A DNA stretch of 7,168 bases from a virus (Duplodnaviria; Heunggongvirae; Uroviricota; Caudoviricetes): IMG/VR virus record IMGVR_UViG_2541047698_000013; one strand, 5' to 3'. Below the pieces are notes generated by a model that was given only the letters and a program-made list of their open reading frames with translations, ran no database searches and had not been told where the DNA came from. The position numbers and the translations under genes are program-made. Numbering within the stretch: position 1 is the stretch's first letter; every line of letters begins with the position of its first letter. Below, piece by piece: positions 1 to 7,168 of this stretch.

Positions 1-801
1 ATGCCACTGCTGGATAAGCTGCGTGAGCAGTACGGGGTCGGACCGCTATGCAGCGAACTGCATATTGCCCCGTCAACGTATTACCACTGTCAGCAACAGC
101 GACATCATCCGGATAAACGCAGTGCCCGTGCGCAGCGCGATGACTGGCTGAAGAAAGAGATACAGCGCGTATACGATGAAAATCACAAGGTATACGGTGT
201 GCGTAAAGTCTGGCGTCAGTTGTTACGGGAAGGTATCAGAGTGGCCAGATGCACTGTGGCACGTCTCATGGCGGTTATGGGACTTGCCGGTGTTCTCCGG
301 GGTAAAAAGGTCCGTACGACCATCAGCCGGAAAGCCGTTGCCGCAGGCGACCGCGTAAACCGTCAGTTCGTGGCAGAACGACCTGACCAGCTGTGGGTGG
401 CTGATTTTACTTACGTCAGCACATGGCGGGGCTTCGTCTATGTGGCGTTCATCATTGATGTGTTTGCCGGATACATCGTGGGGTGGCGGGTCTCATCGTC
501 CATGGAAACGACATTCGTGCTGGATGCACTGGAGCAGGCGTTATGGGCCCGTCGACCGTCCGGCACGGTCCATCACAGTGATAAAGGTTCTCAGTATGTA
601 TCGCTGGCCTACACACAGCGGCTTAAGGAAGCCGGATTACTGGCATCAACAGGAAGTACAGGCGACTCGTATGACAACGCGATGGCTGAGAGCATCAATG
701 GTCTTTACAAAGCGGAGGTAATACACCGTAAGAGCTGGAAAAACCGTGCAGAAGTGGAACTGGCCACACTCACGTGGGTGGACTGGTATAACAATCGATG
801 A
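1..801 (+). CDS. IS629-like transposase OrfB (DDE, integrase-type catalytic domain); ends at an in-frame TGA (799-801), with family-conserved C-terminal sequence continuing in the same frame to the next stop at 886-888
   Basis: 266-aa ORF from the track. DDE motif spacing is typical of the IS3 family. The ATG at 1 is probably not the natural initiation site, because IS3-family OrfB is normally made as an OrfAB fusion by -1 frameshifting from an upstream orfA that is outside the window. Confidence 0.88.
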   Translation: MPLLDKLREQYGVGPLCSELHIAPSTYYHCQQQRHHPDKRSARAQRDDWLKKEIQRVYDENHKVYGVRKVWRQLLREGIRVARCTVARLMAVMGLAGVLRGKKVRTTISRKAVAAGDRVNRQFVAERPDQLWVADFTYVSTWRGFVYVAFIIDVFAGYIVGWRVSSSMETTFVLDALEQALWARRPSGTVHHSDKGSQYVSLAYTQRLKEAGLLASTGSTGDSYDNAMAESINGLYKAEVIHRKSWKNRAEVELATLTWVDWYNNR

Positions 802-905
802 TTGCTGGGAAGGCTGGGCCATACTCCTCCGGCAGAAGCAGAAAAAGCTTATTATGCTTCCATCGGAAACGATGATCTGGCAGCCTGAGTTCACAGATAA
901 AACAC

Positions 906-930
906 TCTCCAGGAAACCCGGGGCGGTTCA
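906..930 (+). repeat. Right terminal inverted repeat of the IS element (inner boundary approximate)
   Basis: Terminal sequence ...CTCTCCAGGAAACCCGGGGCGGTTCA ends the element at 930. The left end is not in the window, so the IR length cannot be confirmed by self-complementarity. Confidence 0.5.
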
Positions 931-3720
931 GCGCTAAGAAATCTTGAACAACAGCAGGATGAACTTAATGCTGCGTTTGCATCCGGGAAAATAAATGGTT
1001 CTCAGTTTGAGAATTATAGCCGAAAAATACAGGAAACACGGCGAGAGCTTACCGGAGAGGCTCAGGCAGAGCGAGAAGCAGCAAAAGCGCATGATGAACA
1101 GGTTGCTGCTTTGCAACGTCTGATTGCTCAACTTGACCCTGTCGGAACTGCTTTTAATCGTCTGGTAGAACAACAGAAACAGCTCAATGAAGCAAAAGCT
1201 AAGGGGATGCTCTCTCCTGAAATGTATGAGGAACTTTCTGGAAAACTTCGTGCTATGCGGAGTGAGCTTGAGGTTACTCAATCTCAATTAAGCAAAACCG
1301 GAATGTCGGCAAAACAAACGGCTTTTGCTATGCGCATGTTGCCTGCACAAATGACGGATATTGTTGTTGGGTTGTCCACTGGTCAGTCGCCTTTTATGGT
1401 GTTAATGCAGCAGGGCGGCCAGCTAAAAGATATGTTCGGTGGGATTGGCCCGGCGATCAAAGGTGTTGGTTCTTATGTGCTGGGATTAATTAATCCTTTT
1501 ACCCTGGCCGCAGCAGCCGTTGGCGTCTTAGGGCTGGCTTACTATAAAGGCTCTCAGGAGCAGGACGAATTTAATAAGTCTCTTATTCTTACCGGAAATC
1601 AGTTGGGGACAACCAGCGGGCAATTGGCCGATATAGTTCAACGTGCCGGGAATGCGGCTGATTCGACAACTGGCGCTGCGGCGGCAGTATTAAACCAGCT
1701 TGTGCGTTCGGGAAAGGTAGCGAGCAGTTCGCTGGAGCAAGTGACGACAGCGATAGTAAAAACGAGCGAAGTAACAGGAATATCAACCGAACAACTGGTT
1801 AATGACTTCAATGAAATTGCAAAGGATCCTGTCAGTGCCATATCAAAACTTAATGATCAGTACCATTTTCTGACAATTGCGACTTATAACCAGATTAAGG
1901 CGCTACAGGATGAAGGGAACCAGCAGGAGGCCGCCCGCATTGCGACAGAAGCATACTCATCCTCAATGATCCAGCGCACCAACCAGATTAAAGAAAATCT
2001 TGGTTATCTTGAGACTGCATGGAAAGCTGTCGCAGACTCCGCAAAATGGGCATGGGATTCCATGCTGGATATTGGCCGTGAGGCCTCCCTTGATCAAAAA
2101 ATCTCAGATGTTCTCCGTCAAATTGATGAAATAGAAAAAAATACCCGACCCGGAGTTTTCGGGTTAGGTGGCATTGGAGATGGCGGAGCTCAAAATAAAA
2201 GGCTGGCACGATTAAAGCAGCAATTGGGCGTACTTCAAGCAGAAAAAATTGCTCAGGACGTACTAAATTCATCAATAAACGATTACAACAAGCGACAACA
2301 GGAAGGAATTGAACTCAGACAGAGAGCAGATGCCTTTTCAAAACAATATCAGACCCGGGAGCAGCAGAGAGCTAGTGAACTTGCAAAACTGGAAAAACTA
2401 AAGAGTCAGTATTCAAAGGAAGAATATAATAATCTTATCGCTCAAATAAATGAGCGTTATAAAGATCCAAAGCAACCAAAGGCGAAAGGTTATTCGGATG
2501 ATGCTGCCCAACGAATGATTGATCATCTGAATCAACAGAATGCGTTACTAAGTTCACAAACTGAATTAACCGTTAAATTAAGTTCCTCTGAACAGGAACT
2601 GGTTAAGTGGCGTCAGCAGATTGCCGACCTGGAGTCACGACCGTCATCGAAATTAACCAAGGATCAGAAATCGCTTCTCTTACACCGGGAAGAAATAACC
2701 GCGTTGATGGAGAAAAATGTTGCGATTGAAAAAAATAACAGGCTAATCAAGGAATCCGCCGAAATAGCTGCATGGCGTGATTCATTGCAGGCTTCGATTG
2801 ATAATCGTCAACAGGGGTATGATATTCAGATTGCTGGTTATGGGGTTGGCGATAAAAATCAGCAACGCCAGCAGGAATTACTGCGGATTGAACGTGAATA
2901 TAACAATCAGCGTCTGCAACTTGAACGTGACTATGCAGATAAATCCCGTGGGATGTCAAATCATGTTTTTCAGGAGAAAATGCAGGCTCTGAATGATGCT
3001 CTGGAACGAGAAAAAGAAATTGTCAGACAGAAAAACGAGCAGCTCGATATTCAGGCAGGAGACTGGGTTAGTGGTGCCTCCCAGGGATTCAATAACTGGC
3101 TGGATGACACTAAGGATATCAGTGAGCAGATAAAATCAACCACGACTCAGATGTTTGATGGAATGACCGATGCGCTGGGTGATTTTGTCACGACAGGCAA
3201 AGCAAATTTTCGTTCTTTCGCTACTTCCGTGATTTCGGATCTTAGTCGAATAGCATTAAAGGCTTCAATTACTGGGATTTTCGACAGCATTAGTAACAGT
3301 TCTTCTGGGGGGATTTTAGGAACTATCGGGAGTGCTATTAGTAAATTTATTCCGAATGCAAAGGGCGGTGTTTATGAGTCTCCGTCATTGAACACGTATT
3401 CGAACGGTATTTATGATTCCCCGCAATTTTTTGCTTTTGCAAGAGGGGCTGGTGTTTTTGGTGAGGCTGGTCCGGAAGCCATTATGCCATTAACACGAAC
3501 TTCCGATGGTTCTCTTGGTGTCAGAGCTGTTAATAGTAAAAGTGGTAATGGAGGCGGAGATATTACCTATGCCCCTGTATACCAAATCACTATTCAAAAT
3601 GACGGCCAGAATGGAGAGATTGGCCCTCAGGCAATAAAAGCACTTATGGGGATGGTTGATCAGCGGGTGCAGGGCAATCTGTTAAATATGCGACGTGATG
3701 GGGGAATGTTAAGTGGCTAA
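931..3720 (+). CDS. H: Tail length tape measure protein (lambda gpH-like), C-terminal portion; 5' end apparently severed by the IS insertion (probable pseudogene)
   Basis: Frame 1 is open from the IS junction to the TAA at 3718-3720, with no ATG/GTG/TTG before the TTG at 1111 (first ATG at 1207); frames 2 and 3 have stops at 935 and 945. The translation carries the conserved tape-measure motif [41 protein letters not shown] (lambda H: [13 protein letters not shown]...QSPWLILLQQGGQVKDSFGG) and a lambda-H-like C-terminus (...[16 protein letters not shown]...[10 protein letters not shown]). The central region is long, charged and Q/E/K/R-rich, typical of tape measure proteins. Confidence 0.9.
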
Positions 3721-4051
3721 TACGGAAGAATTTCACTGGTTACCAGAGGATGGAATGAAAACAGAAAATAAACCATCGATAAAAACTGTAAGATTTGGCG
3801 ATGGTTATGAGCAACGAAGTCCAAATGGACTTAATCATTCTCTGCGCGTTTTCACCTGTGATTTCAAAGTTGAGGCGAATGAACGTGATTCATTTGAAAA
3901 ATTTTTAGCCCGGCATGAAGGCTATAAATCTTTTTTTTGGCGCCCGCCGGGTATTAACAGAAAAATCAGAGTGGTGTGTCGAACGTGGTCAGCGACAGAA
4001 CATATCACCTATACCGATTTTTCGTGTCAGTTTGACGAAGTGGTGATCTGA
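3713..4051 (+). CDS. M: Minor tail protein M (lambda gpM-like)
   Basis: 112-aa ORF with ...[16 protein letters not shown]...[16 protein letters not shown]...FDEVVI, matching lambda M (...VRFGDGYSQRAPAGLN...FLEEHGGWKSFLWTPP...FEQVVN). The GTG start at 3713 overlaps the H stop (GTGGCTAA). An alternative ATG at 3755, preceded by GAGGA, would give MKTENKP..., which resembles the lambda M N-terminus MKTFRWK. Confidence 0.85.
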
Positions 4052-4749
4052 TGCAGGACATACAACAGGAAACGCTGAATGAATGCATTCGTGCGGAGCA
4101 GTCGGCCAGCGTGGTGCTCTGGGAAATCGACCTGACAGAGGTAGGCGGGGATCGCTACTTTTTCTGTAATGAGCAGAACGAAAAAGGTGAGTCTGTCACC
4201 TGGCAGAGTCGGCAGTATCAGGCCTATCCCATTCAGGGGAGTGGATTTGAGATGAACGGCAAGGGCAGTGCTGCCCGTCCGACACTGGCGGTCTCTAACC
4301 TGCACGGCATGATCACCGGGATGGCGGAAGATCTGCAGAGTCTGGTCGGCGGAACGGTGGTCCGGCGTAAGGTTTACGCCCGCTTTCTGGATGCGGTGAA
4401 CTTCGTCAACGGAAACAGCGAAGCCGATCCGGAGCAGGAGGTGATCAGCCGCTGGCGCATCGAGCAGTGCAGCGAACTGAGCGCGGTCAGTGCCTCTTTT
4501 GTACTGTCCACGCCGACTGAAACGGATGGCGCTGTTTTTCCGGGACGTATCATGCTGGCCAACACCTGCACCTGGACCTATCGCGGCGATGAGTGCGGTT
4601 ATAGCGGTCCGGCGGTCGCGGATGAATATGACCAGCCGACGTCCGATATCACGAAGGATAAATGCAGCAAATGCCTGAGTGGCTGTAAGTTTCGCAATAA
4701 TGTCGGCAACTTTGGCAGCTTCCTTTCCATTAACAAACTTTCGCAGTAA
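4051..4749 (+). CDS. L: Minor tail protein L (lambda gpL-like; tail tip assembly)
   Basis: 232-aa ORF, near-identical over its length to lambda L as I recall it (MQDI.QETLNEC.RAEQSASVVLWEIDLTEVGG.RYFFCNEQNEKGE... ending KCSKCLSGCKFRNNVGNFG.FLSINKLSQ), including the C-terminal Cys cluster. Its ATG overlaps the M stop (TGATG). Confidence 0.95.
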   Translation: MQDIQQETLNECIRAEQSASVVLWEIDLTEVGGDRYFFCNEQNEKGESVTWQSRQYQAYPIQGSGFEMNGKGSAARPTLAVSNLHGMITGMAEDLQSLVGGTVVRRKVYARFLDAVNFVNGNSEADPEQEVISRWRIEQCSELSAVSASFVLSTPTETDGAVFPGRIMLANTCTWTYRGDECGYSGPAVADEYDQPTSDITKDKCSKCLSGCKFRNNVGNFGSFLSINKLSQ

Positions 4750-4754
4750 ATCCC

Positions 4755-5498
4755 ATGACAGAGACAGAATCAGCGATTCTGGCGCACGCCCGGCGATGTG
4801 CGCCAGCGGAGTCGTGCGGCTTCGTGGTGAGAACGCCGGAGGAGGAAAGATATTTTCCCTGCGTGAATATCTCCGGTGAGCCGGAGGAGTATTTCCGGAT
4901 GTCGCCGGAGGACTGGCTGAGTGCAGAAATGCAGGGAGAGATTGTGGCGCTGGTCCACAGCCACCCCGGTGGTCTGCCCTGGCTGAGTGAGGCCGACCGG
5001 CGGCTGCAGGTACAGAGTGATTTGCCGTGGTGGCTGGTCTGCCGGGGGGCGATTCATAAATTCCGCTGTGTGCCGCATCTCACCGGGCGGCGCTTTGAGC
5101 ACGGGGTAACGGACTGTTACACGCTGTTCCGGGACGCTTACCATCTGGCGGGAATTGAGATGCCGGATTTTCATCGCGGGGATGACTGGTGGCGTAACGG
5201 TCAGAATCTCTATCTGGATAATCTGGAGGCCACAGGGCTGTATCAGGTGCCGTTGTCAGCGGCGCAGCCGGGCGATGTGCTGCTGTGCTGTTTTGGTTCA
5301 TCGGTGCCGAATCATGCCGCCATTTACTGTGGTGACAGCGAGCTGCTGCACCATATTCCTGAACAACTGAGCAAACGAGAGAGGTACACCGACAAATGGC
5401 AGCGACGCACACACTCCCTCTGGCGTCACCGGGCATGGCACGCATCTGCCTTTACGGGGATTTACAACGATTTGGCCGCCGCATCGACCTTCGAGTGA
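4755..5498 (+). CDS. K: Tail assembly protein K (lambda gpK-like), with an N-terminal JAB/MPN-type metalloprotease motif and a C-terminal NlpC/P60-type Cys/His peptidase region
   Basis: 247-aa ORF. It contains the JAMM signature H-x-H-x7-S-x2-D (HSHPGGLPWLSEAD, nt 4956-4997) with a conserved upstream Glu (AESCGF), and a downstream Cys (VTDCYTLF, codon at 5115-5117) plus His residues (PNHAAIY, LLHH) consistent with NlpC/P60. It starts 5 nt after the L stop. Confidence 0.9.
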   Translation: MTETESAILAHARRCAPAESCGFVVRTPEEERYFPCVNISGEPEEYFRMSPEDWLSAEMQGEIVALVHSHPGGLPWLSEADRRLQVQSDLPWWLVCRGAIHKFRCVPHLTGRRFEHGVTDCYTLFRDAYHLAGIEMPDFHRGDDWWRNGQNLYLDNLEATGLYQVPLSAAQPGDVLLCCFGSSVPNHAAIYCGDSELLHHIPEQLSKRERYTDKWQRRTHSLWRHRAWHASAFTGIYNDLAAASTFE

Positions 5499-6037
5499 AA
5501 ACGGGGTCCGAAGCCATCCGGGCGCTGGCCATGCAGATCCCGGCATTTCGTCAGAAACTGAGCGACGGCTGGTACCAGGTACGCATTGCCGGGCGTGATG
5601 CAGGTGAAACCGAATTGTCTGCCCGTCTTAATGAGCCGCTGGAAAATGGTGCCGTGATCCATATCGTGCCGCGTCTGGCAGGAGCCAAAAGTGGCGGTGT
5701 GTTTCAGGCTGTGCTGGGGGCGGCTGTTATGGCGGTTGCTATATGGATGCCGGGGGTAGGAATTATGGCGAGTAATCTGCTGTTTTCTCTCGGTGCCAGT
5801 ATGACGCTTGGCGGTGTTGCACAGATGCTGGCCCCTAAACCCAAAACCCCCCGCACACAGACAACGGATAACGGCAAACAGAACACCTATTTTTCTTCAC
5901 TGGATAACATGGTTGCCCAGGGCAATGTTCTGCCGGTTCTGTACGGTGAAATGCGCGTGGGGTCACGCGTGGTTTCTCAGGAGATCAGCACGGCAGACGA
6001 AGGGGATGGTGGTCAGGTTGTGGTGATTGGTCGCTGA
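5396..6037 (+). CDS. I: Tail assembly protein I (lambda gpI-like)
   Basis: 213-aa ORF. The N-terminus MAATHTLPLASPGMARICLYGDLQRFGRRIDLRVKTG and the C-terminus ...TPRTQTTDNGKQNTYFSSLDNMVAQGNVLPVLYGEMRVGSRVVSQEISTADEGDGGQVVVIGR match lambda I as recalled. It overlaps the 3' end of K by 103 nt in a different frame, as in lambda. Confidence 0.9.
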   Translation: MAATHTLPLASPGMARICLYGDLQRFGRRIDLRVKTGSEAIRALAMQIPAFRQKLSDGWYQVRIAGRDAGETELSARLNEPLENGAVIHIVPRLAGAKSGGVFQAVLGAAVMAVAIWMPGVGIMASNLLFSLGASMTLGGVAQMLAPKPKTPRTQTTDNGKQNTYFSSLDNMVAQGNVLPVLYGEMRVGSRVVSQEISTADEGDGGQVVVIGR

Positions 6038-6097: not shown

Positions 6098-7168
6098 ATG
6101 GGTAAAGGCAGCAGTAAGGGGCATACCCCGCGCGAAGCGAAGGACAACCTGAAGTCCACGCAGCTGCTGAGTGTGATCGATGCCATCAGCGAAGGGCCGG
6201 TTGAAGGTCCGGTGGATGGATTAAAAAGCGTGCTGCTGAACAGTACGCCGGTGCTGGACAGTGAGGGGAATACCAATATATCCGGCGTCACGGTGGTGTT
6301 CCGGGCCGGTGAGCAGGAGCAGACACCGCCGGAGGGATTTGAATCCTCCGGCTCCGAGACGGTGCTGGGTACGGAAGTGAAGTACGACACGCCGATTACC
6401 CGGACCATCACGTCGGCAAACATCGACCGTCTGCGCTTTACCTTCGGTGTGCAGGCACTGGTGGAAACCACCTCAAAGGGGGACCGGAATCCGTCGGAAG
6501 TCCGCCTGCTGGTTCAGATACAGCGTAATGGTGGCTGGGTGACGGAAAAAGACATCACCATTAAAGGCAAAACCACCTCACAGTATCTGGCCTCGGTGGT
6601 GGTGGGTGACCTGCCGCCGCGTCCGTTCAATATCCGGATGCGCAGGATGACGCCGGACAGCACCACAGACCAGCTGCAGAACAAAACGCTCTGGTCGTCA
6701 TACACCGAAATCATCGATGTGAAACAGTGCTACCCGAACACGGCACTGGTCGGCGTACAGGTGGATTCGGAGCAGTTCGGCAGCCAGCAGGTGAGCCGTA
6801 ATTATCATCTGCGCGGGCGTATTCTGCAGGTGCCGTCGAACTATAACCCGCAGACTCGGCAATACAGCGGTATCTGGGACGGAACGTTTAAGCCAGCATA
6901 CAGCAATAACATGGCCTGGTGTCTGTGGGATATGCTGACCCATCCACGCTACGGCATGGGGAAACGTCTTGGTGCGGCGGATGTGGACAAATGGGCGCTG
7001 TATGTCATCGGCCAGTACTGCGACCAGTCAGTGCCGGACGGCTTTGGCGGCACGGAGCCGCGCATCACCTGTAATGCGTACCTGACCACACAGCGCAAGG
7101 CGTGGGATGTGCTCAGTGATTTCTGCTCGGCGATGCGCTGTATGCCGGTATGGAACGGGCAGACGCTG
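6098..7168 (+). CDS. J: Host specificity protein J / tail tip (central fibre) protein, N-terminal 357 codons; continues beyond the window
   Basis: ATG at 6098 is preceded by GGAG with 8-nt spacing. The translation MGKGSSKGHTPREAKDNLKSTQLLSVIDAISEGP... matches the lambda J N-terminus essentially residue for residue. The frame stays open to the window end, which is why the ORF track does not list it. Confidence 0.95.
   Translation, partial: MGKGSSKGHTPREAKDNLKSTQLLSVIDAISEGPVEGPVDGLKSVLLNSTPVLDSEGNTNISGVTVVFRAGEQEQTPPEGFESSGSETVLGTEVKYDTPITRTITSANIDRLRFTFGVQALVETTSKGDRNPSEVRLLVQIQRNGGWVTEKDITIKGKTTSQYLASVVVGDLPPRPFNIRMRRMTPDSTTDQLQNKTLWSSYTEIIDVKQCYPNTALVGVQVDSEQFGSQQVSRNYHLRGRILQVPSNYNPQTRQYSGIWDGTFKPAYSNNMAWCLWDMLTHPRYGMGKRLGAADVDKWALYVIGQYCDQSVPDGFGGTEPRITCNAYLTTQRKAWDVLSDFCSAMRCMPVWNGQTL

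Follow-up and report, generated by a model that had tools for sequence, protein, structure and literature searches.

The first 930 positions of the window (the whole 7,168-nucleotide stretch of DNA analysed here) probably represent the right part of a full-length IS629-family insertion sequence (IS) whose transposase frame has been disabled by an inherited nonsense allele. The allele appears to have been gained through gene conversion or homologous recombination with an IS copy of the type found beside papI in E. coli, and a new point mutation is a less likely origin than such an exchange. The element sits at a junction in a prophage remnant, between a truncated integrase gene and a truncated tape measure gene.

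The window comes from the end of a 122-kb contig (locus L007, 10001-17168) on source scaffold KE699060.1 of assembly GCA_000456365.1, a draft short-read scaffold of an unfinished genome. Its first 930 bp are the right-hand portion of a 1310-bp IS3-family element, and the remainder is a lambdoid prophage tail-gene block (Table 1). The full element occupies L007 9621-10930; the first base of the window, where the orfB ATG lies, corresponds to IS position 381, and any IS position is the window position plus 380.

Table 1. Features of the window, with the evidence on which each was placed.
Feature	Position	Strand	Basis and remarks
orfB, IS629-family (IS3 family)	1-801	+	ORF list, profiles; 266 codons plus premature TGA
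ALIL pseudoknot, 3' part, stimulator of -1 frameshifting	1-72	+	Rfam RF01497, model 46-117, cut at its 5' side
Premature TGA replacing CGA (Arg267)	799-801	+	Comparison with intact copies (C there, T here)
Former orfB C-terminal tail, 28 codons plus native stop 886-888	802-888	+	Equals the intact C-terminus save for one Glu to Gly change
A to G, GAA to GGA, Glu to Gly relative to the ET82 type	809	+	Also in intact IS1203-type copies
Right terminal inverted repeat IRR, ending ...GGGGCGGTTCA at 930	906-930	+	Extent read from printed sequences
Tape measure gene, 5'-truncated, of a lambdoid prophage at the Rac site	931-3720	+	Annotated matches; Pfam TMP_2, TMP_4, Tape_meas_lam_C
Minor tail protein	3713-4051	+	ORF list, profiles
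Tail protein L	4051-4749	+	ORF list, profiles
C40/JAB peptidase K	4755-5498	+	ORF list, profiles
Tail assembly protein I	about 5435-6037	+	ORF list, profiles
Tip protein J, start	6098 to window end (7168)	+	ORF list, profiles

Membership of the IS3 family is clear from the protein. The window OrfB scores 299.4 bits against the NCBIfam profile NF033516 (transpos_IS3), above the curated cut-off of 160 and over profile positions 93-354 of 369, and it contains the Pfam domains HTH_21, rve and a truncated rve_3. The DDE triad, sought with the second D and the E some 35 residues apart and with a K or R seven residues further on, is present as D135 (in WVADFTY), D194 (in HHSDKGSQY) and E230, followed by K237 (in AESINGLYK), and all of these lie upstream of the stop. 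The two-frame organization of the family is likewise in place. In the source contig, orfA (0 frame) is intact and encodes 108 aa, orfB lies in the -1 frame, an A6 slippery run occurs at IS position 373, and the ALIL pseudoknot is complete (RF01497, 117 nt, 120 bits; L020 1966-2082), the window itself holding only the 3' part of this programmed frameshift signal. The ends of the element have the TG...CA form, with TGAACCGCCCCGGG... at the left repeat (IRL) and ...CCCGGGGCGGTTCA at the right, the same as in intact copies; over its outermost 14 bases IRR repeats IRL (TGAACCGCCCCGGG) perfectly in inverted orientation, and the outer 25 bases agree at about 22 positions.

These are the properties of the IS629/IS1203/IS3411 group of E. 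coli and Shigella, with which the window element shares a length of 1310 bp, TG...CA ends, an imperfect terminal repeat of about 25 bp, orfA and orfB in the 0 and -1 frames, the A6 run, the ALIL pseudoknot and the DDE triad. It is 99.85% identical to intact copies of the type found in strain ET82 and 96.4% identical to a copy named IS1203 by PGAP. An earlier note on this DNA had related the element to IS629, and that placement agrees with the name under which NCBI sources list the identical 266-aa protein ("IS3-like element IS629 family transposase, partial"); this protein name and the identity to the PGAP-named IS1203 copy serve as proxies for a comparison with the ISfinder IS629 reference. 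Unlike intact members of the group, the window copy has a nonsense codon at position 267, leaving OrfB and OrfAB short by 29 C-terminal residues, and unlike simple insertions of the group, it has no target-site duplication at its location.

The interruption itself is easily read from the sequence. The ORF at 1-801 ends in WVDWYNNR, with CGA at 796-798 immediately followed by the TGA, and the ORF list and translation bear out the earlier reading that the same frame stays open to a second stop at 886-888. Between the two stops the frame translates as LLGRLGHTPPAEAEKAYYASIGNDDLAA. An open stretch of this kind is unremarkable alone, as 28 stop-free codons are expected by chance in about one case in four; the tail is meaningful because it is homologous to intact copies, not because its frame is open. 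The closest of those copies, in ET82 (L001) and EC21GDE043 (L002), encode a 295-aa protein (WP_151327001.1) that ends in ...WYNNRRLLERLGHTPPAEAEKAYYASIGNDDLAA. They read ...WYNNRRLLERLGH... and are annotated as "IS3 family transposase, programmed frameshift". With CGA at codon 267 in the intact copies, the TGA is indeed premature, and the loss of about 29 residues proposed in the earlier note proves to be exactly 29. The part of orfB that follows the stop is no longer translated.

When the complete 1310-bp elements are compared, just two bases separate the source copy from that of ET82, C799T and A809G (C1179T and A1189G in IS numbering). The haplotypes formed by these two sites are informative. 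The ET82 type has C/A, is intact and is widely dispersed; a C/G combination (carried by loci L017, L018 and L019) is found in other intact copies, including one on plasmid pMRY16-002_1 and the PGAP-named IS1203 copy, which reads RRLLGRLGH; and the T/G combination carries the stop. Since C/G copies are intact, G809 is an ordinary polymorphism and the C to T change alone is disabling. The disabling change arose on a C/G background and not on the ET82-type background that the window copy possesses.

The T/G pair is by no means private to the window. A 69-base segment spanning both changes (window 770-838) recurs at 100% identity among complete E. coli records, 676 of which contain it, and the T/G copies that were examined first, from Nissle 1917, strain 4/1-1 and AVS0575, all adjoin papI (the AVS0575 copy is interrupted by a group II intron). 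A query with the papI-side junction was found in 760 of 5426 complete genomes, 683 of them at 99% identity or higher, and the papI locus accounts for essentially all T/G occurrences. The pair identifies a long-standing pseudogene copy that adjoins papI in E. coli genomes by the hundred. The earlier proposal of a single C-to-T change is thereby upheld in one part only: CGA to TGA is one transition, but it is paired with A809G, and the T/G pair was already a common allele rather than a mutation peculiar to this copy. The finding of the same pair in hundreds of finished genomes also makes a plain sequencing error at position 799 very unlikely. By comparison, an exact 36-mer with both changes was absent from GTDB representatives, among which E. 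coli is a single genome, so that this search is uninformative.

RefSeq annotates the papI-linked copies as pseudogenes with an "internal stop"; the Nissle 1917 copy (locus CIW80_RS08605), for example, is marked "programmed frameshift; internal stop". This treatment of same-allele copies by RefSeq/PGAP is consistent with the earlier suggestion that the window holds an inactivated IS. In this respect the window copy is an ordinary disabled member of the IS629 family, of a kind already known and already flagged by annotation pipelines. The Nissle 1917 pseudogene has the same TGA codon and the same linked G ten bases downstream as the window copy, and over window positions 688-930 the two differ at only two positions. 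Elsewhere they are clearly distinct. The Nissle copy shows 68 differences from the window element (94.8% identity), nearly all of them before IS position 1067; these 66 further backbone differences and its location beside papI set it apart from the window copy, which is of the ET82 type and lies in a prophage remnant.

The window copy is thus a mosaic. At 70 sites that separate the ET82 and Nissle types, it is of the ET82 type except at IS positions 1179 and 1189. The most likely route to this pattern would be gene conversion or homologous recombination with a papI-type copy, and the conversion tract would measure between 11 and 183 bp, the upper limit being set because the two backbones agree over IS 1068-1250 apart from the two sites. 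Comparable mosaics occur in finished genomes. In strains 5132 and DETEC-E1005, the papI copy retains Nissle flanks and the TGA around an interior (IS 426-1034) of the ET82 type, while in PEC1013 and 51489 the TGA is found on a mostly ET82-type backbone with another right-hand junction, beside IS66 tnpB. These four strains demonstrate that conversion or recombination among copies does occur. The window thereby offers an example of how, in an element with many copies, what looks like a point mutation may have been taken over as an allele from a different copy.

Some further details of these mosaics can be recorded. The copies of 5132 and DETEC-E1005 (L023 and L024; IS at 2062-3371) have outer parts of the Nissle type and present a clear tract of IS-IS gene conversion. 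Those of PEC1013 and 51489 (L025 and L026; IS at 2062-3371) adjoin IS66 tnpB/tnpA, with aerobactin genes nearby in PEC1013; their left flanks differ from one another, and neither copy has a target-site duplication. A junction of this IS66 tnpB type is rare, with about three exact cases.

Assembly is the source of another conceivable explanation. The copy at the tape-measure junction could truly be intact, with C/A, and the assembler could have filled a bubble at IS 1179-1189 from another copy, such as one linked to papI. Position 799 sits 132 bp inside a multicopy repeat of a short-read scaffold, and the backbones around the two sites are identical over the same IS 1068-1250 interval, so that a path through the assembly graph could switch freely. 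Moreover, the two other assemblies with this junction extend only 54-76 bp into the IS and do not reach position 799, as a collapsed repeat would lead one to expect, and the exact mosaic is found in no complete genome, where the 1310-bp element has no identical copy. The exact protein is otherwise mostly confined to short or metagenomic contigs with shuffled flanks (52 of 95 blocks consist solely of contigs under 2 kb). On the other hand, similar mosaics, with an ET82-type interior and the TGA, are present at two loci in complete genomes and render this one biologically plausible; the exact protein occurs on 63 contigs from several sources (the intact 295-aa and Nissle-type truncated proteins each occur on at least 1000); and a sister assembly confirms the G at window position 871 as contiguous with the junction. 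An assembly chimera is therefore considered unlikely, albeit worth bearing in mind, and the case illustrates that short-read base calls inside IS copies need read-level evidence if they are to be assigned to a particular copy. A fresh and independent C to T change in the window copy would require either a backbone, so far unsampled, that already had G809, or an independent origin for G809 as well. A single transition suffices to turn CGA into TGA, and C/G copies, which are one step away, do exist. However, the rest of the window backbone matches the C/A copies of the ET82 type, the C/G copies seen so far differ from it at 19-47 other positions, and the two changes, 10 bp apart, together form a haplotype present in about 680 genomes, for which transfer is a far better explanation. 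A fresh mutation is accordingly rated as very improbable.

It is also conceivable that the UGA is functional, either because it is decoded (as Trp by read-through or as selenocysteine) or because selection maintains the truncated OrfAB as a regulator or inhibitor of transposition. The allele lasts in hundreds of genomes and the frame after the stop is undamaged; in addition, truncated IS3-family transposases that keep their N-terminal domains have been reported to bind the IS ends (PMC2909936). Persistence, however, is explained by vertical inheritance of one papI-linked locus, and read-through would place Trp at a conserved Arg. Downstream of the UGA, the RNA is no more stably folded than shuffled versions of itself, with no SECIS-like signal in the fold of 796-875 (z = -1.67; 15 of 200 shuffles fold as well), and no Rfam family was found just 3' of the UGA. 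A UGA followed by U is, moreover, reportedly an efficient termination context in E. coli. Selenocysteine insertion and programmed read-through were rejected as candidates from the comparison with shuffles, the lack of an Rfam match and the UGA-U context. The TGA-bearing copies also show no sign of insertion, as described below, and a functional UGA in any form seems scarcely credible.

With the inherited nonsense allele, OrfB and the OrfAB fusion produced by -1 frameshifting would both end 29 residues early; they would keep the HTH, the leucine-zipper region and the DDE triad and would lose the terminal part of the integrase-core fold with its conserved R(P)HxxLG..P. The stop falls on the residue that aligns with the conserved R/H of a YNxxR(P)HxxLG..(S/T)P motif, common to the IS600-like OrfB and two other diverged IS3-family OrfBs in the alignment. 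That the tail resembles a conserved IS3-family C-terminal region, as the earlier note had it, is confirmed by the profiles: the match to NF033516 reaches position 354 of 369 in the window OrfB and 369 of 369 in an intact relative, and that to rve_3 reaches 55 and 67 of 67, respectively. No solved structure was detectable by sequence for the transposase, and the role of the lost tail rests on this profile and motif conservation; a search of the literature turned up no experimental work on an IS3-family transposase shortened by 29 residues at its C-terminus. The uninterrupted full-length OrfAB frame expected of an autonomous copy is broken by the TGA at orfB codon 267. From these features of its sequence, the window copy would most likely be unable to transpose by itself.

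Whether such copies move with the help of others is a separate matter. Mobilization in trans by other copies, which had been put forward as possible, is feasible in principle but finds no support in the flanks: target-site duplications are absent from all 11 TGA-bearing copies compared, which have nine different pairs of flanks, and present, at 3-4 bp, in three of four intact copies, in a sample that is small and drawn partly from metagenome assemblies. The contigs encoding the exact protein show several flank combinations, with left and right flanks shuffled, and recombination among copies accounts for this pattern better than straightforward insertion of an element with the TGA. Nevertheless, IS1203v/IS629 derivatives that lack the transposase gene have been excised once OrfAB was supplied (bioRxiv 10.1101/2023.06.07.543989), and IS911 OrfAB without its catalytic domain still binds the inverted repeats (PMC2909936). 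Because its ends, orfA and frameshift signal are intact, and in light of these IS1203v/IS629 and IS911 findings, the window copy is plausibly non-autonomous yet recognizable by transposase made elsewhere. It could, in principle, serve as a substrate for transposase from intact copies, and its own truncated product might still bind the ends.

A more speculative possibility is that the nonsense allele acts as a spreading "poison" patch, passing by conversion from the papI copy into active IS629-family elements and silencing them, while the truncated OrfAB, which keeps the DNA-binding and multimerization domains, might inhibit intact copies in trans. If true, some E. coli lineages would possess an inbuilt check on the expansion of IS629, but the idea is regarded as quite unlikely.

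As a separate observation on IS629-like copies, a metagenome scaffold (L006, 5299-7772) was found to contain two of them in an apparently overlapping or tandem arrangement; one IRL lies at 5299, and the IRRs terminate at 6608 and 7772. Both OrfBs in this scaffold are truncated, at 266 aa, and either a nested insertion or an assembly artefact could account for the arrangement.

The setting of the window copy (window 906-1000 and L007 9003-10990) is that of a damaged prophage. On its left, a truncated intR gene, encoding the Rac prophage integrase, is 100% identical to that of K-12 up to the first base of the IS. On its right, the sequence starts at nt 445 of a 3234-nt tape measure gene, the first 444 nt being absent. 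(In the source annotation, the shortened tape measure CDS begins with an ATA codon at window position 991, but the frame is already open from 931, the first base after the IS.) In the relative 23CRST032, the tape measure gene is intact (L028 19557-22790, with the window match beginning at 20001) and is preceded by more than 20 kb of prophage upstream of the match point, all of it missing in the source. The bases flanking the IS, GGCAAA and GCGCTA, form no target-site duplication, because of a later deletion or recombination that left intR on one side and the tape measure gene on the other. The IS marks the place where the Rac-site prophage lost more than 20 kb, through an IS-associated deletion or through IS-IS recombination. 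Adjacent deletions and IS-IS recombination by IS629 have been described in prophages of E. coli O157 (reviewed in bioRxiv 10.1101/2023.06.07.543989), and the window element likewise joins sequences that are not normally adjacent; as candidate mechanisms, the transposase may have produced an adjacent deletion, or two IS copies may have recombined.

The same right-hand IS/tape-measure junction, with identical downstream sequence, is present in assemblies GCA_907175065.1 and GCA_002464185.1; it was found in none of the 5426 complete genomes and in none of the JGI metagenome contigs. The case has little significance beyond annotation, where the appropriate label for the element is IS629-family pseudogene with an internal stop; the prophage should be described as a remnant left by deletion, with the IS connecting intR to what is left of the tape measure gene. 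Finally, the tail region of this prophage is 100% identical in strain DLI.6n (L004 1-5812), where the tape measure gene carries a different IS3-family element at another site and the tail terminator gene is interrupted by an IS629-like copy; the prophage appears to be a repeated target of IS elements.
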